The notes beneath the pieces are model-generated. The model did not search any database. It worked only from the letters and a program-made list of their open reading frames with translations, and was not told where the DNA came from. The translations under genes and the position numbers were made by a program. From the UHGV virus genome UHGV-2198042: 18,814 nt of DNA; one strand, 5' to 3'. Shown here one piece after another: positions 63 through 18,752 of the stretch. How positions within the stretch are numbered: position 1 is the first letter of the stretch; every line of letters begins with the position of its first letter. The stretch comes from a virus.

Positions 63-77
63 TTAGTATAAAAAAGC
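63..77. repeat. att core (O) copy, attR-type junction (P-O-B' read on minus strand)
   Basis: ttagtataaaaaagc is the reverse complement of the lambda core GCTTTTTTATACTAA; host-like sequence on one side, P-arm-like sequence on the other. Confidence 0.85.
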
Positions 78-7945: not shown

Positions 7946-8548
7946 TCATCCCCCGAATGCTGATGTAACGCTTCCGCCCAGCTGGCTCAGCAAGGATTCG
8001 TTTGGCGGTGTAGTGGATTTCATCCCGGAATTCTGCACCGCCGATGTGCTGACGCCATCCTGCATATCTGATTTATCTGCAACGCTAACGCTCTGCGTCT
8101 GCGACATGATCACTTCACGCAGGGTAAGCGTGCAGTTCAGCACGTTCTCGCTGGTTTTATCCGTTGTCACCTCGATGGCTCGCACCAGCATATTGCTGTA
8201 AACCCGCTTTCCGGTCACTACATCGAACGGCACCCGAGAGGACTGGAGATCCAGTAGTTGCTGATAGGTCTCTTTCGGGCTAAGTCCGGCGCTGAGGCCG
8301 ATTGACGATGTATCAATGAAGTCCAGCAACGAACCGCCACCTGCGAAGCCGCATTCCATCGTGACTTCGCTGGGGCGCTTATACGCATGATCGGCGATGA
8401 AACCCGACGCGCTATTCGTTGTTGGCTTCTCCACCGGGTGCTCAGTAATTTCGAGCGCATCAGAATGCTTTTCGGAAACGACCACGCTGGGGATCAGCAG
8501 GCCAATTCGCCGGGATTGCTGGCGAAAAATCGCTGATAAAATATCCAT
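7946..8548 (-). CDS. tail protein of unknown function
   Basis: 200 aa ORF immediately downstream of the tape-measure gene; family not recognised. Confidence 0.45.
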   Translation of the reverse strand: MDILSAIFRQQSRRIGLLIPSVVVSEKHSDALEITEHPVEKPTTNSASGFIADHAYKRPSEVTMECGFAGGGSLLDFIDTSSIGLSAGLSPKETYQQLLDLQSSRVPFDVVTGKRVYSNMLVRAIEVTTDKTSENVLNCTLTLREVIMSQTQSVSVADKSDMQDGVSTSAVQNSGMKSTTPPNESLLSQLGGSVTSAFGG

Positions 8549-10185
8549 TATCTCGGTCCTGCGGGGAGTTGCTGGGTTAACTGTGAATTCACGCCCTTTT
8601 GACGGTCAACAGTCAAACGGGCAGCCTCGCGCGGATCGGAAACGCCGTGGATGTTAATGTTCGTTTCCTGCTGAATCACCGGGGCGCTGGTGGGCATATT
8701 GCTCATCACTTTCGGAATGTAGTTGCGCGTTTCCTGCGGCATTAGCCCCATTCCATAACGCTTAACATTCCCGATCCCCCAGTTATATGATGCCAGTGCT
8801 TTGCTAAGGTCTCCGCCGTTCTGCCGCAACAGCTGGCTGAGGTACTTAGCGGCTGCCTGAGCTGACTTTTCCGGGTCGAATACATCATTCCCACGCAGGC
8901 CCATGTCGCGCGCCGTGCCATCCATAAACTGAAACAGTCCTTTCGCGCCTGCGCCGGATATGGCGAACTGGTTACCACCCGACTCGGTGATCGCCACGCT
9001 TTTCAACAGGCCAGCTGGCAGCTGATAAAGCGACTCCAGTTTATTGAACATTGGCCCCATCCAGTCGAGCAATACCTTGCCCTGGGCCGTCGCCTGAGGT
9101 CGCTTAACCGACTGCGCTCGCTGCTCCGGCTCCAGTCCCATCTCCTGAATTTTTCGCTGGATTTGCTCATCAGTGAAAAAGTCTTTGCCGGGATTTTCCT
9201 TTCTCAGCGCCTCATATGCCTGCTGCCTTTCAGGTACGATATTGCTGCCTATACCGCCAATCGACGCCATTTCTTCACTGGTGGTCGGCGTATTGTTGGC
9301 AGGAATGAACATAAGCAACCATGGATTCTTGATTGCCAGCTGTGCGATCCCCTGCGCCAGCTTACCCAGCCCACCAATAGAGCCGCCAATTGCCTTACCA
9401 AGCCCCATAAATCCGGCGACAAGTCGCCCGATGCCAGTGAGCATGGAGACCAGCTTCGCACCAGCCAGAAAGCCAAACAGGATGGTGAGCGTATTTTTCC
9501 AGCCGCCGAGGTTGTCCTTGAGCTCCAGAAACTTATCGCGCAGCCACTTGAACACCTTCTTTGCCTGCTCAATTTCTGGCTGCCATTTGGACCAGTCAAT
9601 CAGGCTTTTACCGCCCTCTTTCCACGTCTGGTAATCGTCGTACAGCAATCCGATCGCCAGAATCAGTGTGGTGATAATTCCAATCGGGGATTTCAGGAAC
9701 GCAGAATTAAGCAGACGCCATGCGACCAGTAGAGCACCGAATATTTTCAGCAGATTTTTACTGCCATCGTCAAGACGCTTCCACCAGTCGATGACAGAGC
9801 CAGCGCCCTGTATCAGCCGCCACGCCATTCTCGTGAATGCGTTCGCAAGCCAGATCACGCCTTTAATAACTCTGGTCAGCGTCTCTTCAATCTTCGGGAA
9901 ATTGTCGAGGATGCGCCGCCGCAGGCTGTCCAGCGAACCAGCCAGGCCACCAGCGAGGTTTGAGCCGATCTTGTCCCGCATGATGCCGAACAGCGACGTA
10001 AGCCCGCGCATGGACGTCATGAATTTGTTGGACTGAACAGCCGCTTTATCAGCGTTGAACCCTGTCTTTTGCAGCATCGACTGGTAATCGGCGGTAAAGC
10101 CATTCATGCCGCGCCGCATCGCCATCAGCGTGTTTTCATCGATGCCAAGCATCTGCGCGTATTGTTTCGCGCGGTAATACGGCAT
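8548..10185 (-). CDS. tail tape-measure-like protein with C-terminal lytic transglycosylase (SLT) domain
   Basis: 545 aa; several Gly/Ala-rich hydrophobic segments; C-terminal ESGGNQFAISGAGAKGLFQFMDGTA...ASYNWG resembles SLT-family transglycosylase motifs; position before the baseplate genes. Confidence 0.65.
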   Translation of the reverse strand: MPYYRAKQYAQMLGIDENTLMAMRRGMNGFTADYQSMLQKTGFNADKAAVQSNKFMTSMRGLTSLFGIMRDKIGSNLAGGLAGSLDSLRRRILDNFPKIEETLTRVIKGVIWLANAFTRMAWRLIQGAGSVIDWWKRLDDGSKNLLKIFGALLVAWRLLNSAFLKSPIGIITTLILAIGLLYDDYQTWKEGGKSLIDWSKWQPEIEQAKKVFKWLRDKFLELKDNLGGWKNTLTILFGFLAGAKLVSMLTGIGRLVAGFMGLGKAIGGSIGGLGKLAQGIAQLAIKNPWLLMFIPANNTPTTSEEMASIGGIGSNIVPERQQAYEALRKENPGKDFFTDEQIQRKIQEMGLEPEQRAQSVKRPQATAQGKVLLDWMGPMFNKLESLYQLPAGLLKSVAITESGGNQFAISGAGAKGLFQFMDGTARDMGLRGNDVFDPEKSAQAAAKYLSQLLRQNGGDLSKALASYNWGIGNVKRYGMGLMPQETRNYIPKVMSNMPTSAPVIQQETNINIHGVSDPREAARLTVDRQKGVNSQLTQQLPAGPR

Positions 10186-10291
10186 GTTGTTGAGCTTTTG
10201 CCCAACCCGCCCTGATAGCTGCCTGTGTGGCGTTTAAATCTTTCAGGTACTCACGGGCAAACAGCTCTTGTTTGTCGGTGAGCTTTGCCAT
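10136..10291 (-). pseudogene. terminase small subunit N-terminal stub
   Basis: 51-codon frame MAKLTDKQELFAREYLKDLNATQAAIRAGW... matches the conserved terS N-terminal HTH motif, then loses similarity and stops; overlaps the tape-measure start in another frame; GGAG RBS upstream. Confidence 0.5.
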
Positions 10292-13196: not shown

Positions 13197-13633
13197 GTTG
13201 CCAGTTTTCAATGAAGATAATGCGGGCAAAAAAAGCCTGCTCGGACGAACAGGCATGAAAAATAACAATACCGTCAAGGAGGTGGCGCCGGGTGCCTCCC
13301 GGTGGAACAGCCCCAGCCGACTAGTTCCGCGCAAACAAACCTGGACAAAAAAGTTTGACTGGACGCCCCGCCGCATAGGGGGATTCACCACGAACCAAAA
13401 GATAAAATCATCCGGTGACCGGGGCAATATCTAACCGGAACTTTTCAGAATCACTTATTGTTTCCTGGAGAGTACATGAGCGTTGGTGAATTCACGTGAT
13501 GCTTTTGGATGAGCGCTGAACCCAAAGGTCAGTATTTTCACACAGCAATTTTGCAAAAAGCAGCGCCCATTCAAAACCAGGTCGCTTTCCAGTCACTCCG
13601 GGGAACCCATCATCGCAGACTGGAAAGCTTTTA

Positions 13634-13671: not shown

Positions 13672-13926
13672 TTATTTCCAGCTTTCGCCATTTAAGGCTG
13701 AAAGCACTGTTTGATGTGTTACACCAAACATTCTCCCTAGCCCTCTGGCTCCATAAACCTTATGTCGTGGAATGTAGTTTTCTCTGATGAACTGGACGCT
13801 GTCCATTGTTAGCTTGCTCATACCATTCAGCTCACCAGCTACTAAGTAGCTAAGGTCAAATTTGGTTTTCTGAATGTGGCATGCAGAACATAGTAGTTGG
13901 CACTTTTCAACCTCAGCATAAAACAC
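13672..13926 (-). pseudogene. HNH endonuclease C-terminal fragment with HTH
   Basis: 84 aa starting at GTG directly after an in-frame TAG; contains CQLLCSACH (zinc-binding half of an HNH motif) and an HTH-like segment, but lacks the N-terminal catalytic part. Confidence 0.4.
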
Positions 13927-14133
13927 CTAATCTGAGTGATAGTGCATCTCGCTTACATTTGCTGATTTGGTGGAAGGGTCTATGTGGTCAAACTGAAGCG
14001 AATATTCGGATCCGCAACTCGCGCAACGACCACCCAACTTTTCCACGGTCTTAGCAAGCCTAGCCCTTCGATTAAGATAGTAATCTTTGCTCGGCATTTA
14101 CCACCTCTACCATTGGAGCTAAACCAGCATGTT

Positions 14134-14208
14134 TGGCGGGATAGCGTGGACTCGAACCACGATAAGAAGGTTAACAGCCTTCCGTAATGACCTTTATACG
14201 ACTGACCC
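14134..14208 (-). tRNA. tRNA-like element, anticodon GUU (Asn-like), probably degenerate
   Basis: 75 nt on minus strand: acceptor gggtcag, D-arm with A14 and GG, anticodon stem gaagg/ccttc with loop cuGUUaa, T-arm cgtgg-TTCGAGT-ccacg, 3' ctatccc-g-CCA; acceptor stem has 2 central mismatches. Confidence 0.35.
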
Positions 14209-14298: not shown

Positions 14299-14787
14299 CT
14301 ATGCTACATGTTTAATTTTCTCTACACGTTTCCGGTTTTTAAACGCACTATCCAGAACCGGGTAAATCATAAACAACGAGGCATTGAGGATTTCGTCAAC
14401 TTCCCGACGACAGGTTGCGAGCGATGGTTTTTGAATGCGCCCTCCGCCCCGGCATAACATCTTGCGAGGTCTTGCGACGCGATGATAGTAAGATGCAATG
14501 GCGTGCTTGGAAGATCCATGGGCGTAGTAGCTGAGGAGGATGCCAAAGGCTTTCTTGTCAATGTACATGACGGAATCGACGACCTGAGAAATCAACATTC
14601 CATCATCATCATTGCACATTGGCCTTGTCATAACTCTTCCCGGCTCTACGCTCTCCATGAACTTCGCTATTACGCTGCTCATGCGCTTTTCAAGACGACC
14701 TGAATAAACCCATGCCCCCCACAGTTCAAGCCAGCCATTCAGCCACTCGTGCTGCTCTTTGGTGAGGTTTAGTTCTCTTATGCCCAT
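14299..14787 (-). CDS. Q: late-gene antiterminator Q (non-lambda Q family)
   Basis: 162 aa ORF immediately downstream of ninH and upstream of the lysis cassette; several Cys/His; no similarity to lambda Q itself but the size fits small Q proteins (phage 21 type, from memory). Confidence 0.6.
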   Translation of the reverse strand: MGIRELNLTKEQHEWLNGWLELWGAWVYSGRLEKRMSSVIAKFMESVEPGRVMTRPMCNDDDGMLISQVVDSVMYIDKKAFGILLSYYAHGSSKHAIASYYHRVARPRKMLCRGGGRIQKPSLATCRREVDEILNASLFMIYPVLDSAFKNRKRVEKIKHVA

Positions 14788-14972
14788 CGTCTTCCCCTCT
14801 TGCCCTGTTTGACCATCAGGACGCCGTTAACTATTACGTGACGCTCGCCTTTGCTGTCTCGGTTGTACTTAAGCACTGTTCCTCTTGCGCAGGAAAGCAT
14901 CCTTGCCACTTCGGTCTGATTGCCTCGTGTCTGGATAAGAAGCTCTGGTATCGTTTGAATTGTGGCGTTCAT
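14778..14972 (-). CDS. ninH: NinH
   Basis: 64 aa; ...TIPELLIQTRGNQTEVARMLSCARGTVLKYNRD...HVIVNGVLMV closely matches lambda NinH as I recall it. Confidence 0.8.
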   Translation of the reverse strand: MNATIQTIPELLIQTRGNQTEVARMLSCARGTVLKYNRDSKGERHVIVNGVLMVKQGKRGRRWA

Positions 14973-15331
14973 ACGTTCTCCAGTTCGGTGATTTTTATTC
15001 CAAGCCGTCCGCCTGGTACTTTCACGCCACGAATTACGCGAATGTCATCGAATTGCTCGTCGTCTTCCGCAAATCCGGCGTGGATAAGGGAGTCGAGTAA
15101 ACCTTTCAGGATGTTGTCGAGGTCGCGGCGGCGGGAGTCTGGAACGTCTGCGATGACTTTGATGCGGAGTCGTGATTTGGTGAAAATGTCTAACTTAAGT
15201 TGGCGGATGATTTGCTGAACGTCTTTTCGGTATTTCTGGCCTTTATCGCTGATGTAGTATTGGCTTCCCCGTCTTCGCCAGTAGGTATTCACCGACGGCG
15301 GGTATGGAAGCACAAACTGATATTCGTTCAT
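14969..15331 (-). CDS. rusA: Holliday junction resolvase RusA
   Basis: 120 aa; LPYPPSVNTYWRRRG... and catalytic-region motif RRRDLDN match the RusA family. Confidence 0.85.
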   Translation of the reverse strand: MNEYQFVLPYPPSVNTYWRRRGSQYYISDKGQKYRKDVQQIIRQLKLDIFTKSRLRIKVIADVPDSRRRDLDNILKGLLDSLIHAGFAEDDEQFDDIRVIRGVKVPGGRLGIKITELENV

Positions 15332-15618
15332 GACTTAATCTTCCCCTCCTTCAGCAGTATCGCCTGCGTCCTGATCACGCCTTCGAGGTGGTAAAGCCTG
15401 GCGTCTTTGTTGTCGAGATTATGGGTGCGTCGGTCGATTTCATCGTGACACGCGCTACAAGCCCATGCGCCGATCAGGTCGTCAGGCTTCATTCCCGTTC
15501 CGCAAATTCCAGCCATCCGGTAATGTGCCAGAACTGTAGTTTCAGGGTTGCCATTGCATACGCCGTAAATACGTACCTGGCATTCTCTGCCGCGCGCTTC
15601 TTTGCGTAGGTTAGCCAT
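15328..15618 (-). CDS. YbcO-like DUF1364 protein (nin region)
   Basis: 96 aa; RKEARGRECQVRIYGVCNGNPETTVLAHYR...ACSACHDEIDRRTH resembles E. coli DLP12 YbcO from memory; start overlaps rusA. Confidence 0.65.
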   Translation of the reverse strand: MANLRKEARGRECQVRIYGVCNGNPETTVLAHYRMAGICGTGMKPDDLIGAWACSACHDEIDRRTHNLDNKDARLYHLEGVIRTQAILLKEGKIKS

Positions 15619-16340
15619 TAAGCAGCCTCTCCTGTTACTTTCAGCATTCCGTTATCGAGCAACTTTCTGGTCAGCCACTGTTGACCGCGCCCGGTGATTT
15701 TTGTGGTGAACGATATCTGTATTCCGTGATTTGTATTGACCGCTGTTTCTTTCACTGTGAAATAGCCGCGATCCATATATTCCTGCATTGGCACATTGCG
15801 CCGGGAACCTGAAGCAATAAGGATTTTGTGATCGCGCATCCACGCAAACAGTTTGTTTGGACCAATACCGACAACCTTTGCAAAGTTTCCAATCAAAATT
15901 CCGCTGGCCTCGCCAACGCGATCGGCAAACTCAACTTTAGGTGCGGCAATTGCGAGCTGGTTTTCCAGTTGCATTTTCTGCTCAGCAAGATCAGCAGCAA
16001 GGCGCAACGCTTCTGGTAGCGTTTTGGGGATATTAACCGCAGCTTCTTCAAGCTCTCGCCAGCGGTCAACAAGGCGAGCGGTGAATTCCGGCGACAACTG
16101 GGCAACAACGACAATACTGTCTCGCTTACCTTGTTCGCCTTCGAAGACGTAATGCTCGTACTGAACATTGAACCCTAAGTTATTGATTCTTTCGGAAACC
16201 TCAATTTGAGGAAGCCGGATAACACCATTTTTAGCCAGCGTTTCGATGGTACGTTTCACATTGTCATGACGCTTACCAACCAACTCAGCGATTTCAATGC
16301 TTGTCATTTTGATGGCATTGCCATTTATTAACTCATTCAT
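15618..16340 (-). CDS. Rha-family regulatory protein / antirepressor with KilAC C-terminal domain
   Basis: 240 aa; N-terminal MTSIEIAELVGKRHDNVKRTIETL (Rha-like), C-terminal ...FAKVVGIGPNKLFAWMRDHKIL...TTKITGRGQQWL (KilAC-like). Confidence 0.7.
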   Translation of the reverse strand: MNELINGNAIKMTSIEIAELVGKRHDNVKRTIETLAKNGVIRLPQIEVSERINNLGFNVQYEHYVFEGEQGKRDSIVVVAQLSPEFTARLVDRWRELEEAAVNIPKTLPEALRLAADLAEQKMQLENQLAIAAPKVEFADRVGEASGILIGNFAKVVGIGPNKLFAWMRDHKILIASGSRRNVPMQEYMDRGYFTVKETAVNTNHGIQISFTTKITGRGQQWLTRKLLDNGMLKVTGEAA

Positions 16341-16503
16341 CGTCTTCTTCCTCGTGCATCGAGCTATTCGGATCGCTCATCAGTTCTGCGCAGCAGTGCT
16401 CACACACGTGAACTTCCAGCACATGCAGCTTCTGACCGTAGTTAGCGCACGTTAAAGCTCGCTCGACACTTCCTTGTTCGTAACTTCGATTTTGGTCAAT
16501 CAC
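16333..16503 (-). CDS. ninF: NinF-like zinc-binding small protein
   Basis: 56 codons below the ORF-track cutoff, GTG start after a GAGGA RBS: ...SVERALTCANYGQKLHVLEVHVCEHCCAELMSDPNSSMHEEEDDE, near-identical in pattern to lambda NinF from memory; stop overlaps the Rha gene start. Confidence 0.6.
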   Translation of the reverse strand: MIDQNRSYEQGSVERALTCANYGQKLHVLEVHVCEHCCAELMSDPNSSMHEEEDDE

Positions 16504-16524
16504 CTTGTTTTCCTCGCACGTTCT

Positions 16525-17559
16525 CTAATCGACCAGAATCATGCCAACACATCCTTTTTCTCGCTTGATTCGACGACTTTCGCTGACGATTTGAGCCAGA
16601 GATAATCCCGGCGTGTCGTCGATGTAAAGCAGGTCGATTTCACTCAAGCGATTGGCTGTTTCGATCGCCCTGTTGAAGTCACCATCGTAATCACCCTGAT
16701 AGCCGTCATCAGCGTCATTTGTCGCCGGAATGTAAAAAATATTCGGGTTAACACCTGACTTCTGTCCTACCAGCTTTTCCAGTATCTGGTCGCCTGGCAT
16801 TTCAAGACTGAACATCAGAGCGGGCTTTTTCTCATGCACTGCGCAGTTGATTGCCATCTGGCTGTATAGCGTCGTTTTCCCCATCTTAGGGCGAGCGCCA
16901 ATGACGAACAGAGAGCCTTTCACCAGACCTTTCGGTGACAGCATCCTGTCCAGAGATGGGATCCCTGTGCTCATTCCTCGTTGTTCGCCTGACGGGTCAA
17001 ATCGCTTCTCAAGGTCGCTAACCCAGTCTTCCATGACCTCACCAAATGAGCGAAGGCCGCGACGCGATCCGGTTTTTGCATGGTCTGTCAGTTGCGTGAA
17101 AATCGCCTGAATAGCTTCGTACTTCTGCGTTGCAGTCATTCCGTTGCGGGAATAGAGCAATTCCGTCGCTTCAGTCATGCGGTTGATGGCGTAGCGTTCC
17201 ATTGCGGTTTCACGAACCTGCATTGCATAGGCAACGATGTTTGCTGCGCTTGGCGTGTTCTTTGCGATCTCAGCGATATAAGCAAAACCGCCAACAGACG
17301 CCGTTAACGATTTACGCTCCAGTTCATCGAAAAGCGTCAGGCCATCTACTGGCTTTTGCTCCCGGTGCATTCTGGTTATTTCTTCGAAAAGGATTTTGTG
17401 TGGTCGGCTGTAAAATGAATCAGGCTTCAGCATCGCCAGAACTTTCTGGACGCGCTCACTGCTGTCATCATCCAGAAGCAATCCACCAATCACCGCCTGC
17501 TCTGCCTCGATGCTATGGGGCGGCGCATAAAAATTATCGGTCATCGTGTTCACCCTCAC
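16525..17559 (-). pseudogene. DnaB-like replicative helicase (P22 gene 12 type), 3'-truncated at Walker B
   Basis: 344 aa; Walker A GARPKMGKT present; ends ...GCVGMILVD* exactly where the DnaB Walker B motif (hhhhDYLQ) should continue; about 100 C-terminal residues missing. Confidence 0.7.
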
Positions 17560-18115
17560 GAACTTTCAGGTAGGTATTATCGTTAAGCAGGAAATCAAAT
17601 CCCTTTTTGTGCCAGACGGTTCCGCGTTGATGGTTTGGGCGCTCTTCGAACATCCATCGGCAATTTTCGCCAACGTAGCTCAAATAATTTCTCCAGTCCT
17701 GCATCGTGAACCCATGCCCGTCAAGTTGGCGTGTTATTACTCCGGCTTTGCGCCAGAACGTTCGGATCTGGTTTTTACGCTTGTCATTCAGTGCGCGGAT
17801 TCTTGGCGCTTCAGGAAGGATTTCGTGGTAAGCATCGACAACATCCTGACAGCTGACGGAAGGTTTTTTCTTGTCAGACTTTTTGTCTGCTGTGGCACTC
17901 TCTAATACGTCAGTATTAGAGATATTATTTATATTATTGTTTATGGACAACTGTTGGACAACCGTTGGACAATCTCCGCTGAGAGCCGCACCATTACTGG
18001 TGTTTGCGTTGGACAACCGTTGGACAACCGTTGGACAATTTTTTGACTGAAAATCGTCATATTTAACGATTGTAAACAGGCTAAATTTCTTCCCCATCGC
18101 GCAAATATTAAGCAT
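17534..18115 (-). CDS. replication initiator (O-like, iteron-containing); start codon uncertain
   Basis: Overlaps helicase start as in O-P / gene 18-12 arrangements; contains the iteron cluster in its 5' part (repeated CPTVVQRLS); the ORF-track N-terminal 37 codons overlap the int-homologous segment, so an internal Met (about 18115 or 18097) is more likely. Confidence 0.5.
   Translation of the reverse strand: MLNICAMGKKFSLFTIVKYDDFQSKNCPTVVQRLSNANTSNGAALSGDCPTVVQQLSINNNINNISNTDVLESATADKKSDKKKPSVSCQDVVDAYHEILPEAPRIRALNDKRKNQIRTFWRKAGVITRQLDGHGFTMQDWRNYLSYVGENCRWMFEERPNHQRGTVWHKKGFDFLLNDNTYLKVREGEHDDR
17944..18038. repeat. replication origin iterons: six copies of an 11-bp unit NNGTTGGACAA in two triplets, flanked by an AT-rich tract
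   Basis: Seen directly: atggacaa/ctgttggacaa/ccgttggacaa and gcgttggacaa/ccgttggacaa/ccgttggacaa; AT-rich tattagagatattatttatattattgtttat adjacent (about 17900-17943). Confidence 0.7.
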
Positions 18116-18217
18116 CCCTTTCGACTCAAAAGTCCGTAATAAGCTCCGAACTTTGTTGTCGGGGATGAATGTTTCTCTGACCAGCGACGGGCGTCCAGTT
18201 GTCCGATAGCTCCCTGT

Positions 18218-18664
18218 ACCGGGCAACGAGTCGGTGATTTATGCGAAATGAAGTGGTCTGATATCGTAGATGGATATCTTTATGTCGAGCAAAGCAAAAC
18301 GGGCGTAAAAATTGCCATCCCTACAACATTGCATGTTGATGCTCTCGGGATATCAATGAAGGAAACACTTGATAAATGCAAAGAGATTCTTGGCGGAGAA
18401 ACCATAATTGCATCTACTCGTCGAGAACCGCTTTCATCCGGCACAGTATCAAGGTATTTTATGCGCGCACGAAAAGCATCAGGTCTTTCCTTCGAAGGGG
18501 ATCCGCCTACCTTTCACGAGTTGCGCAGTTTGTCTGCAAGACTCTATGAGAAGCAGATAAGCGATAAGTTTGCTCAACATCTTCTCGGGCATAAGTCGGA
18601 CACCATGGCATCACAGTATCGTGATGACAGAGGCAGGGAGTGGGACAAAATTGAAATCAAATAA
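18218..18664 (+). pseudogene. int: integrase C-terminal fragment (lambda Int residues about 209-356)
   Basis: Translation ...TGQRVGDLCEMKWSDIVDGYLYVEQSKTGVKIAIPT...HELRSLSARLYEKQISDKFAQHLLGHKSDTMASQYRDDRGREWDKIEIK* is near-identical to the lambda Int C-terminus from memory; upstream of about 18218 the frame is unrelated and hits a stop at 18140-18142. Confidence 0.85.
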
Positions 18665-18737: not shown

Positions 18738-18752
18738 TTAGTATAAAAAAGC
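18738..18752. repeat. att core (O) copy, attL-type junction (B-O-P' read on minus strand)
   Basis: ttagtataaaaaagc followed by aggcttca..., matching the attB B arm from memory. Confidence 0.85.

Follow-up and report, generated by a model that had tools for sequence, protein, structure and literature searches.

The replicative helicase gene of UHGV virus genome UHGV-2198042 (18,814 nucleotides, analysed over its whole length and referred to here as the window) is very probably a deletion-truncated pseudogene in a relic prophage, cut at a point at which this helicase allele breaks recurrently, with an IS3-family transposase and the E. coli IEE protein as candidate agents. The endpoint on the helicase side, ...GGTCGATTA|CC, is common, to the nucleotide, to 14 distinct junctions that have different partners and lie in independent prophages, i.e., at least 13 other independent prophages are broken where the window is. 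A deleted lambdoid relic with a dead helicase copy is ordinary prophage decay in itself, and the dead gene is one more of its kind in a decaying prophage; what makes the case interesting is the hotspot.

The truncated helicase gene

The features around the truncation are as follows.

16525..17544, minus strand: DnaB-family replicative helicase gene of the HK022/HK542 'P' type, truncated to 339 codons plus TAG (ORF list, Pfam, alignment)
16525..16529, minus strand: deletion junction (three-way alignment of the window, the HK542 helicase and the HK542 ninF upstream region)
16504..16524, minus strand: ninF leader, 21 nt with a ribosome-binding site (GAGGAAAA), the same as the sequence directly upstream of the annotated ninF CDS in HK542
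16333..16503, minus strand: ninF, 56 aa, intact, with a GTG start at 16503-16501 (Pfam NinF)

At the junction, the minus strand reads GGC ATG ATT CTG GTC GAT TAG AGA ACG TGC GAG GAA AAC AAG GTG ATT GAC, and the helicase ORF terminates as ...GMILVD-TAG, with GAT (Asp) at 16530-16528 as its final codon and the stop TAG at 16527-16525. The N-terminal DnaB domain is present (PF00772, E 1.9e-31 in the Pfam scan, matched over residues 13-117 of the scanned 344-aa GTG-start ORF, i.e., 8-112 when numbered from the ATG), and the C-terminal ATPase domain is incomplete, given that only positions 1-136 of the 255 in the DnaB_C profile (PF03796) are covered. Both Walker motifs, A (GARPKMGKT) and B (GMILVD), are kept, and the ORF stops at the Walker B Asp.

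The full-length homologue P0010 can be aligned end to end with E. coli DnaB (PDB 6bbm), with GMILVDYLTLM opposite GLIMIDYLQLM, and motifs H3 (QLNR) and H4 (the DNA-binding loop), together with the arginine-finger region (SDSRDTGQIEQD), fall within residues 340-478 of the full-length protein, which are missing from the window. The helicases of intact relatives have 476-478 aa, 478 aa being typical among thousands of them, and the ORF corresponds to the 5' 71% of an HK022/HK542-type gene, with 98% nucleotide identity to nt 1-1019 of the HK542 helicase. Given that half of the RecA fold, H3/H4 and the arginine finger are missing, and that it probably has no dedicated promoter, the remnant would be a non-functional pseudogene, as judged from its sequence.

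The junction with ninF

The sequence is derived from the helicase gene down to 16529, the TTA at 16528-16526 is common to both parents (helicase GGTCGATTA|CCTGAC and ninF upstream region GGTGGCTTA|GAGAACG), and the ninF upstream region begins at 16525, which means that the codons of the Walker B Asp-Tyr are fused to position -21 of ninF at a 3-nt TTA microhomology and that the TAG stop was made by the join itself. The leader, seven codons in frame with the helicase, is native to ninF, and both it and the GTG start are identical to those of HK542 ninF. The ninF product matches PF05810 (1.2e-09, 38.3 bits against a cut-off of 27.5), and the exact protein belongs to a NinF cluster of 508 members.

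In a megablast search against 375 phage records, homology ends at query position 1125, i.e., window position 16526, and HK542 is matched in two pieces that span 2,488 bp in HK542 and 1,401 bp of the query. The earlier note had proposed that the helicase ORF runs in the same frame into the ribosome-binding site and GTG of a NinF gene, which is confirmed by the sequence, the Pfam matches and three samples, and that a deletion took the C-terminal part of the helicase with the proximal nin genes, which the alignment also bears out: the 1,087 bp missing relative to HK542 comprise helicase codons 340-478 (29% of the protein), ninB and ninE. As no direct ancestor of the relic with an intact helicase was found, the size of the deletion is stated relative to HK542-like phages.

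The TAG is one base away from the normal Tyr codon TAC, which by itself would suggest that a nonsense or frameshift mutation has struck a helicase gene that is whole in all other respects. The comparison of a single-nucleotide change with a deletion, which the earlier note had put forward as a check, came out for the deletion, as homology to the helicase stops, and homology to the HK542 ninF upstream region starts, at 16526. Past the TA, the sequence is unlike the helicase and identical to the ninF leader, and the window lacks the last 417 nt of the helicase gene (its final 139 codons) as well as ninB and ninE, which leaves a point change with a negligible probability; the truncation was produced by a single deletion and not by a point mutation.

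The window is known from metagenome assemblies only, and its junction was found neither in 5,426 complete E. coli genomes nor among the GTDB representatives, as might be expected of an assembly chimera. On the other hand, the junction and its flanks are 100% identical on contigs L002, L003 and L004, which come from three independent samples and two assembly pipelines, a k-mer assembler cannot be misled by a 3-nt microhomology, and analogous junctions exist in complete, closed chromosomes, so that an assembly artefact has next to no chance of being the explanation.

A relic prophage with several deletions

The window holds the whole of an 18.7-kb relic of a lambdoid prophage at the att-lambda site of E. 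coli, bounded by two 15-bp att cores, and its remaining features are listed below.

18738..18752, minus strand: att core GCTTTTTTATACTAA on the ybhC/gal side (prophage attL), an exact match with 0 expected by chance
18217..18664, plus strand: 3' part of a lambda-type integrase gene, with an ORF at 18248-18664 for no more than the C-terminal 138 aa
18204..18216, minus strand: junction filler between int' and O' (three-way alignment)
17534..18203, minus strand: 5'-truncated O-like replication initiator gene (homology to HK542 O from codon ~74; PHROG 345)
17944-18039: ori iterons (TTGTCCAACGG repeats), still present inside the O-like gene
14299..16340, minus strand: nin/late-regulation genes downstream of the junction (Pfam; colinear with HK542, 94% identity), made up of the next five entries
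15618-16340, minus strand: roi/antirepressor
15328-15618, minus strand: ybcO
14969-15331, minus strand: rusA
14778-14972, minus strand: ninH
14299-14787, minus strand: Q antiterminator
10204..10291, minus strand: small terminase gene fragment, joined at 10204-10206 to an internal part of the tape-measure/SLT gene
8548-10185: tape-measure/SLT gene (SLT protein of 545 aa here versus 755 aa in strain 81)
63..77, minus strand: second att core at the opposite end of the window (attR if in the lambda orientation), exact match

The adjoining host genes on L002 are ybhC and ybhJ (99.6% identical to E. coli), with ybhC beside int'. A related relic is present in strain 81 at the same site, between ybhB and ybhC, where the homology of the window to the locus (L007) begins 29 nt past the end of ybhB. 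In strains other than that of the window, the att-lambda site is taken by a full prophage or by a relic with other deletions. All that is known of the E. coli strain with the relic comes from metagenome contigs, none of them longer than 50 kb, and the relic was not found in any of the 5,426 complete genomes.

At least three internal deletions (helicase-ninF, int'-O' and terS'-SLT') were found, and the helicase lesion is therefore one of several and not the sole defect of an element otherwise able to replicate. The statement of the earlier note that ori and the initiator were left behind holds for ori, the iterons being present, and fails for the initiator, as the O-like gene lacks ~74 N-terminal codons and its promoter, and PHROG 345 ('replication initiation O-like') is matched from profile position 74 of 297 only. 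No convincing promoter was found upstream of the truncated O, and everything that lay upstream of O (pR, cro, cI) is gone, with further deletions adjoining the truncated int.

The filler between int' and O' forms the centre of ACAGGGAGCTATCGGACA, an 18-nt island that occurs within longer conserved sequence in other lambdoid prophage loci (L031, L054, L077 and L141), and in L141, the one locus checked, the feature-table coordinates would place it in a cro-like HTH gene; the filler suggests that two or more deletions took place separately between int' and O'. The integrase remnant covers positions 44-168 of the 172 of the Pfam Phage_integrase profile and is 99% identical to the att-lambda integrase genes of E. 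coli genomes, with homology stopping at 18217.

At the third internal deletion, the homology of the tail module stops at 10206 and that of terS begins at 10204, the terminase fragment matching PHROG 51 (terminase small subunit) over profile positions 86-118 of 261 only; the large terminase, head and tail-shaft genes were removed. The modules of an inducible prophage are thus incomplete: cI/cro/N, the whole immunity and early-left region, terL, the portal and the head genes are absent, only the 3' part of int remains, and both O and the helicase are truncated.

A recurrent break point in the Walker B codons

TA lies at the crossover in all nine cases in which the parent sequences could be recovered, within microhomologies of 2-7 nt (TA, TTA, CGATTA, TCGATTA and TTACC), and in four junctions the parents have only TA in common. 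Both in deletions and in one inversion, the ends on either side of this same TA are precise to the nucleotide, the partner sites are 1 to about 20 kb distant, and the prophages broken at the site carry differing integrases. No described hotspot at this position was found in the literature.

Among complete E. coli genomes, 370 of the 380 records with the helicase allele are intact across the site, nine break within 30 nt of it and one is unclassified; all of the seven breaks that were checked lie at the site, six at the same TA and one, a join to IS629, one base inside. In L158, contigs assembled with SKESA stop 12 nt beyond the site. Three matched control GATTA sites in the same gene showed no rearrangements in IMG/VR, against three events at the hotspot, which speaks against the GATTA pentamer alone as the cause (the 14 matches at one control site are synonymous changes in homologous alleles). 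Only events that keep the left half were seen in IMG/VR, and two that keep the right half were found in complete genomes, which show that the site is used on both sides and led to the rejection of a reciprocal, strictly one-sided model.

Several known elements and signals were also considered. Neither an insertion at nt 1019-1022 nor an intein or homing element at Walker B occurs in 135 loci, the sole insertion in the helicase gene being a P-loop intein at nt 667-672 that is unrelated in sequence to the hotspot, and no Rfam family was found at the intein insert or at the break point. By eye, and against consensus sequences, the break showed no match to half-sites of Hin/Gin/Cin-type invertases, to the lambda att core or to the integron GTTRRRY core, while a Chi-like octamer 4 nt upstream (TCTGGTCG, matching Chi at 6 of 8 positions), the gyrase consensus T^GGTCG, which would cut 5-9 nt off the break, and a loose, gapped resemblance to the P22 pac sequence were set aside.

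The earlier note had also allowed for a family of naturally short helicases ending at this point. Many genes do end exactly here, but what follows the end differs from gene to gene, both in sequence and in reading frame; these genes are independent deletion products at the hotspot and not such a family. A natural or domesticated 'half-helicase' kept by selection, for example as a dominant-negative form against the helicase of superinfecting phages, would account for the recurrence of truncations at exactly this residue, some of them widespread (P0122 on 216 contigs; truncated and partial forms mixed among the 209 members of the cluster represented by P0012), and the part that is kept includes the N-terminal domain, which contacts the primase and forms oligomers. 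This is highly improbable, given that the C-terminal tails are unlike one another, be it in sequence, frame or length (some genes have a stop, some 12-19 junk residues and others a fusion to fragments of tail-needle, gp10 or phosphatase proteins), that selection on a protein cannot pin a DNA endpoint to one nucleotide, that events keeping only the right half use the same site, that the operon promoter is lost in this window, and that a truncated RecA fold is unlikely to fold.

Candidate mechanisms of break and joining

The best current candidate for both the break and the joining is the transposase of an IS3-family element (IS629/IS1203), acting at the site together with the IEE PrimPol-helicase of E. 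coli. A DNA end finishing in ...GGTCGATTA-3', or its counterpart starting with TACCTGAC, would be produced repeatedly in this helicase allele, and would then be joined elsewhere in the prophage, mostly downstream, through a terminal microhomology of 2-7 nt always including TA, either by microhomology-mediated end joining or by the switching of a primer strand. Such a transposase and IEE bring about the scarless loss of the IS and, at short microhomologies, deletions next to it that can exceed 40 kb (PMC9943667; bioRxiv 10.1101/2023.06.07.543989).

What points to these enzymes is the IS629 end joined at the site in one genome, that of STEC strain 2013C-4361, which is arranged as int'-IS1203/IS629-ACCTGACAC..., with the right end of the IS one base inside the usual break point and non-matching flanks. 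The presence of an IS at the site in only one of the 380 complete genomes weighs against the IS model, which would have had to involve at least a dozen visits of an IS to one and the same nucleotide, and IEE in vitro elongates microhomologies of 4 and 6 nt and not those of 2 nt (PMC9943667; bioRxiv 10.1101/2023.06.07.543989). No genome was found with IS629 inserted at the site and the left flank kept; two records of O111 strains have IS1203 inside the helicase gene, but with 78 and 413 nt between the left flank and the end of the IS. The site bears only a weak likeness to the terminal repeat of IS629, TGAACCGC, in the form of TGAC at +3 and TGACCGC at +12, the window has no IS, and no genome with an IS at the site that is ancestral to the junctions was found.

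A site-specific nuclease that cuts the Walker-B coding sequence of the allele, with repair of the ends by microhomology joining, is the alternative, at well below even chances; the enzyme might be a nickase, a nuclease that serves in defence, or a homing endonuclease that a competing phage encodes as a free-standing gene. Cutting of this kind would fit the precise endpoints on both sides of the TA and its constant place in the terminal microhomology, as short 3' overhangs would give, and the absence of an IS at 13 of the 14 junctions. Homing elements classically target conserved ATPase motifs, the P-loop of this helicase holds an intein of the LAGLIDADG type in other prophages, and HNH genes are frequent in these phages. 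On the other hand, no candidate enzyme was found, nothing is inserted at or beside the site in the 135 loci, the known DnaB intein sites are the P-loop and H4 and not Walker B, and the only junction with a mobile element carries IS629. CRISPR self-targeting was not supported, as no spacer-sized matches to the site occur in the 5,426 complete E. coli genomes, where the weakest match has 120 nt.

The site may also be considered as a structural hotspot, at which a hairpin or replication pause stalls the polymerase and causes a template switch, or SbcCD cuts the loop. The break coincides exactly with the 5' boundary of the loop in a quasi-palindrome (GGTCGATTA-CCTGACAC-TAATGACC), and the junctions look like primer-template switching, but the hairpin is weak and no better than shuffles (dG -3.6 to -4.2 kcal/mol, z-score -0.06 to -0.6), the partners lie 1 to about 20 kb off and not just beyond a hairpin, and the same site is used by the events that retain the right half and by the IS join, which makes such an origin improbable.

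With either the transposase or a nuclease in mind, it may tentatively be proposed, at well below even chances, that the Walker-B codons (GGTCGATTA^CCTGAC) of a widespread lambdoid/P22-like helicase allele are specifically broken by an activity for which this site has no published precedent, be it a phage or host nuclease or nickase, or the use of the site as a surrogate end or preferred target by IS3-family transposases. The break would repeatedly trigger large one-sided deletions, and would in this way time and again disarm E. coli prophages and turn them into relics. The shared break point is a natural and abundant record of one break-and-rejoin process acting on prophages in wild E. coli, with 14 independent junctions and microhomology use readable in nine. 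If the transposase and IEE are responsible, the site offers a means, already at hand, of assaying surrogate-end activity and end joining of the IEE type as they occur in nature, and if a nuclease is, it reveals the target of the enzyme and a mechanism of inter-phage or host-phage conflict that turns functional prophages into harmless relics.

Comparison with known systems

The P genes of HK542, mEp235, HK75, HK022 and Stx phages (VT2-Sakai) have 98-99% nucleotide identity to the remnant over the first 1,019 nt, and, as in the relic, these phages have an O-like initiator with iterons upstream and nin genes downstream; their helicase is intact (478 aa), whereas the relic has lost codons 340-478 and ninB-ninE. 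In the nin deletions of lambda (nin5), the region just downstream of the replication genes is lost and the later nin genes and Q are brought closer. The deletion of the relic differs in that it starts inside the helicase gene and ends before ninF, in an element without N, pR or functional replication.

Cryptic lambdoid prophages (of the DLP12, Rac and Qin type) and the relic of strain 81 are, like the present one, multiply deleted, non-inducible and bounded by att sites; the cryptic prophages and the relic alike have kept the nin/Q/lysis genes and some tail genes, but the set of deletions is different.

The Int-promoted deletions of lambda, reportedly described by Parkinson, Davis and Huskey in 1971, are said to start at att and to have a fixed endpoint and variable second endpoints. 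This pattern is shared by the hotspot, but its fixed point lies in the helicase gene and not at att, and the 2 nt that are always in common, in prophages with differing integrases, do not fit a tyrosine-recombinase reaction with a 7-bp overlap.

The recurrent use of one nucleotide, which is no described property of IS629, sets the hotspot apart from the deletions caused by IS629/IS1203 and IEE in EHEC and other E. coli. These deletions nevertheless resemble it in having one fixed endpoint, in their case set by the transposase, and one that varies, and they occur at short microhomologies, extend from a few nt to tens of kb and leave no IS behind (PMC9943667; bioRxiv 10.1101/2023.06.07.543989).

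Truncation of the helicase by a deletion

16525-17544, minus strand: truncated DnaB-type helicase ORF, with 339 codons from ATG or 344 from an upstream GTG

The genes under discussion are all on the minus strand. The helicase ORF ends in ...REKGCVGMILVD followed by a TAG stop at 16527-16525, and a GTG at 16503, which is 21 bases past this stop, in frame, and preceded by GAGGAAAA, opens a second ORF of 56 codons. According to Pfam, the first ORF is a DnaB-type helicase, with an N-terminal domain (1.9e-31) and a C-terminal ATPase domain that covers only profile positions 1-136 of 255, and the second is NinF. E. coli DnaB (PDB 6bbm) and P0010, a relative of full length (478 aa), can be aligned over their whole lengths, which places the GMILVDYLTLM of P0010 opposite the GLIMIDYLQLM of DnaB; the window ORF therefore stops at the Walker B aspartate, in agreement with the earlier note.

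When window 16250-17650 was compared with 50,697 phage records using megablast, nearly all of the 375 matches ended at query base 1125, i.e., window 16526. The intact phage HK542, whose genes run in the order O, helicase (478 aa), ninB, ninE, ninF, roi, ybcO-like, rusA, ninH, and Q, was matched in two pieces, with 2,488 bp of the phage corresponding to 1,401 bp of the query. The base-level alignment of the join is as follows.

Window: ...CTGGTCGATTA / GAGAACGTGCGAGG
Helicase parent: ...CTGGTCGATTA / CCTGACACTAATG
ninF-upstream parent: ...CCGGTGGCTTA / GAGAACGTGCGAGG

The helicase and the ninF-upstream region share a TTA microhomology at the join, which itself created the TAG stop. In comparison with HK542, the window lacks 1,087 bp. 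This stretch contains ninB, ninE, and codons 340-478 of the helicase, which encode QLNR, the H4 loop, and the arginine-finger region (SDSRDTGQIEQD). The alignment to both parents confirms the deletion that had been suspected, and this, together with the two-piece match, rules out a point mutation as the cause of the stop. The junction is real, since contigs from three independent samples, assembled by two pipelines, all carry it with 100% identity, and it was not found in 5,426 complete E. coli genomes, nor in the GTDB species representatives.

The window gene belongs to the HK022/HK542 'P' helicase group in truncated form, with no complete ATPase domain, H3/H4, or arginine finger. Outside the window, the sole record of the exact truncated protein is a metagenome-derived 'Caudoviricetes sp.' entry. 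The arginine finger of DnaB acts in trans and, given what is established for DnaB, a product without this finger and half of the RecA fold would be unable to make an active hexamer.

A relic prophage at att-lambda

63-77 and 18738-18752: two copies of the 15-bp lambda att core, GCTTTTTTATACTAA
18200-18217: 18-nt island, ACAGGGAGCTATCGGACA, between the truncated int and the truncated O
17944-18039: ori iterons, retained
10204-10291: small-terminase fragment, whose fusion point with an internal part of the tape-measure/SLT gene is at 10204-10206

On longer contigs, the int end is adjoined by ybhC, ybhJ, and ybhI, with 99.6% identity to E. coli. Given this flank and the two att cores, the window is the entire 18.7-kb remnant of a cryptic prophage that occupies att-lambda of E. 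coli, with ybhB on one side and ybhC on the other. The lambda-type int is reduced to its 3' part, with homology stopping at 18217, and N, cI, cro, cII, and pR are missing, which implies at least two deletions in the int'-O' region. The initiator had been thought to be retained together with the origin, but the O-like gene begins only at approximately codon 74, so that this part of the earlier reading does not hold, and no convincing promoter was found upstream of O' in the window. The nin, Q, and lysis genes that follow ninF remain colinear with those of HK542. The tape-measure/SLT protein has 545 aa, versus 755 aa in E. coli strain 81, and the fusion of the terminase fragment into its gene means that the large terminase (packaging), head, and tail-shaft genes are missing. 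In other E. coli strains, this att site is occupied by a complete lambda-like prophage, or by a relic that shares the tail module but has a different set of deletions. The helicase lesion is thus one among several decay events.

The island ACAGGGAGCTATCGGACA is present in several other lambdoid prophage loci and, by coordinate arithmetic in the one locus checked (L141), apparently lies inside the cro-like gene; it was left behind either by two deletions in succession or by a switch of template. Three other features were observed between Q and the holin gene.

14134-14208, minus strand: tRNA-Asn (GTT) gene, directly downstream of the Q antiterminator gene
13672-14097, minus strand: HNH endonuclease gene between Q/tRNA and holin, interrupted in frame by a stop at 13927-13929
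13224-13416, minus strand: sequence matching the STnc100 sRNA family over its full length (Rfam RF02076; 71.7 bits, gathering score 47), located between the holin gene and the HNH remnant

Each half of the HNH gene matches PHROG 4234, and the gene is probably a further pseudogene. In lambdoid phages of the Stx type, tRNA genes are frequent at the post-Q position.

Recurrence of the helicase-side endpoint

A protein search with the truncated product, in which the normal helicase length is 476-478 aa, returned relatives with at least 98% identity and odd lengths (P0001/P0012, P0002, P0003, P0006, and P0008), which diverge straight after ...GMILVDY and run on into differing sequences, and P0122 (216 contigs) was found among the members of the P0012 cluster. 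At the DNA level, these loci read ...GGCATGATTCTGGTCGATTA and then, at once, unrelated DNA.

Table. Junctions at the helicase-side endpoint, retaining the 5' (left-kept) or the 3' (right-kept) side of the helicase (L, DNA loci)
Left-kept; partner Rz; L008, L013
Left-kept; partner P22 gp10; L009
Left-kept; partner tail needle gp26; L010
Left-kept; partner NinI-like phosphatase; L011
Left-kept; partners without assigned identity; L012, L062, L137, L138
Left-kept; closed E. coli chromosome, strain PCP06173; L015
Left-kept; P0122 type; L023/L127
Left-kept; inverted cII, by inversion plus deletion; L141, strain N273
Right-kept; N' joined to TTACCTGAC...; L140, four porcine ETEC genomes
Right-kept; int'-IS1203/IS629 joined to ACCTGAC...; L157 (2691-4000), STEC E. 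coli 2013C-4361

With the window included, there are 14 distinct junctions at the site, and the left-kept events with visible gene content are colinear rightward deletions of 1.1 to ~20 kb. The undeleted partner could be recovered from other loci for nine junctions, all of which have TA at the crossover, within microhomologies of TA, TTA, CGATTA, TCGATTA, or TTACC; the chance of finding TA in all eight unrelated left-kept partners is ~(1/16)^8. A single defined DNA position is used from either side, and the joins are made via a terminal microhomology that includes TA, to partners that share no other motif.

Among 120 IMG/VR loci, chosen solely by the 20-mer to the left of the site, the gene had three other isolated discontinuities (L017, L092, and L134), and the sole other recurrent one was the in-frame P-loop intein at nt 667-672. 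The same probing of the three other GATTA pentamers in the gene gave 0, 0, and 14 matches, with no rearrangement, all 14 being synonymous TAT>TAC changes in homologous alleles, versus three events at the hotspot in this database. In complete E. coli genomes, 380 records have the 240 nt around the site, with 370 spanning it, four having the left side only, five the right side only, and one unclassified. The breaks in the one-sided records are all within 30 nt of the site, and the seven examined (L015, L141, four of the L140 type, and L157) all break at the site itself, six using the same TA and the IS629 join of L157 falling one base inside. The protein list has five distinct events at this position versus four elsewhere in the 1.4-kb gene (P0005, P0007, P0055, and P0124).

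Other discontinuities in the gene

The P0055 and P0124 fusions diverge within one codon of each other (…NDADDG/K… and …NDADDGY/R…), at helicase codons ~283-284, some 170 nt upstream of the main hotspot, which may be a minor second breakpoint cluster. Several contigs of draft assemblies break off in ...GATTACCTGACACTAAT, 12 nt beyond the hotspot (L158 4020-4031, from NCBI GCA_032411685.1, and the partial proteins P0125 and P0127), which points to another branch point, or the edge of a repeat, at this position in those genomes. A mosaic boundary lies at nt ~1226, beyond the DYW codons (L142-L154), past which several diverged homologous versions of the C-terminal part follow the same 5' sequence.

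The same helicase allele may also have an in-frame insert of ~1 kb in the P-loop, as in L014 1592-4072 (E. coli MS20674), and in L064, L082, L087, L104, L106, L109, and L115. It reads GARPKMGK/AQPLN...THN/TTLYSQ, has LAGLIDADG-like motifs, and gives an ORF of 826 aa, while RefSeq annotates the gene as two pseudogene halves; the insert is an intein, with Ala as its first residue, and its position is the 'b' site already known for DnaB inteins.

Possible origins of the hotspot

The pattern fits a DNA end of defined position (...GATTA-3'), from which short homology is used for priming or annealing. A recombinase recognizing two sites does not fit one fixed position, microhomology that includes TA, and partners with no other common motif. 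A local hairpin was not supported: although the break coincides with the 5' edge of the loop in GGTCGATTA/TAATGACC, shuffled sequence folds at least as well. The DnaB intein sites described in the literature are those of the P-loop and H4; no homing element was found at the site, and no CRISPR spacers against it were detected.

One source of such an end may be an IS transposase acting with the IS-excision enhancer (IEE), a PrimPol-helicase present in more than 30% of E. coli assemblies, which, with IS3-, IS1-, and IS30-family transposases, removes the IS and deletes neighbouring DNA, from a few nt up to over 40 kb, seeking microhomology from a 3' end beside the IS (PMC9943667; bioRxiv 10.1101/2023.06.07.543989). 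The sole junction that still carries a mobile element, L157 (IS629 IRR-ACC-TGACAC...), has non-matching flanks (ATA/ACC), and resembles an IS3-family circle junction, its surrogate left end supplied by helicase sequence, or else a former ACC-target insertion followed by IS-IS recombination. However, an IS is found at the site in just one of the 380 complete genomes, IS629 lies beside the retained left flank in none, and the IS1203 copies in this gene in O111 strains (H252 and H253, the two records found) are 78 and 413 nt from that flank. The site is also only weakly similar to the IS629 end, and IEE extended microhomologies of 4 and 6 nt in vitro, but not of 2 nt (bioRxiv 10.1101/2023.06.07.543989). 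The IS-transposase/IEE origin is thus a tentative, thinly supported proposal, albeit the best available fit; a break made by a site-specific nuclease or nickase is a somewhat less probable candidate, and structural or other causes take up what remains.

Comparison with known systems

The observation and the deletion in the earlier note have stood, unlike its initiator, and the truncation it described is ordinary prophage decay, in a locus of the same type as typical cryptic lambdoid prophages. The interest of the case rests on the recurrence of the endpoint rather than on the single dead gene; this recurrence is nucleotide-precise and well supported. No description of the hotspot was found in the searchable literature, a weak indication that it may be novel. 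The Int-promoted deletions of lambda and the IS/IEE deletions are likewise families with one fixed end, but the fixed point here is inside a helicase gene, with no element left there.
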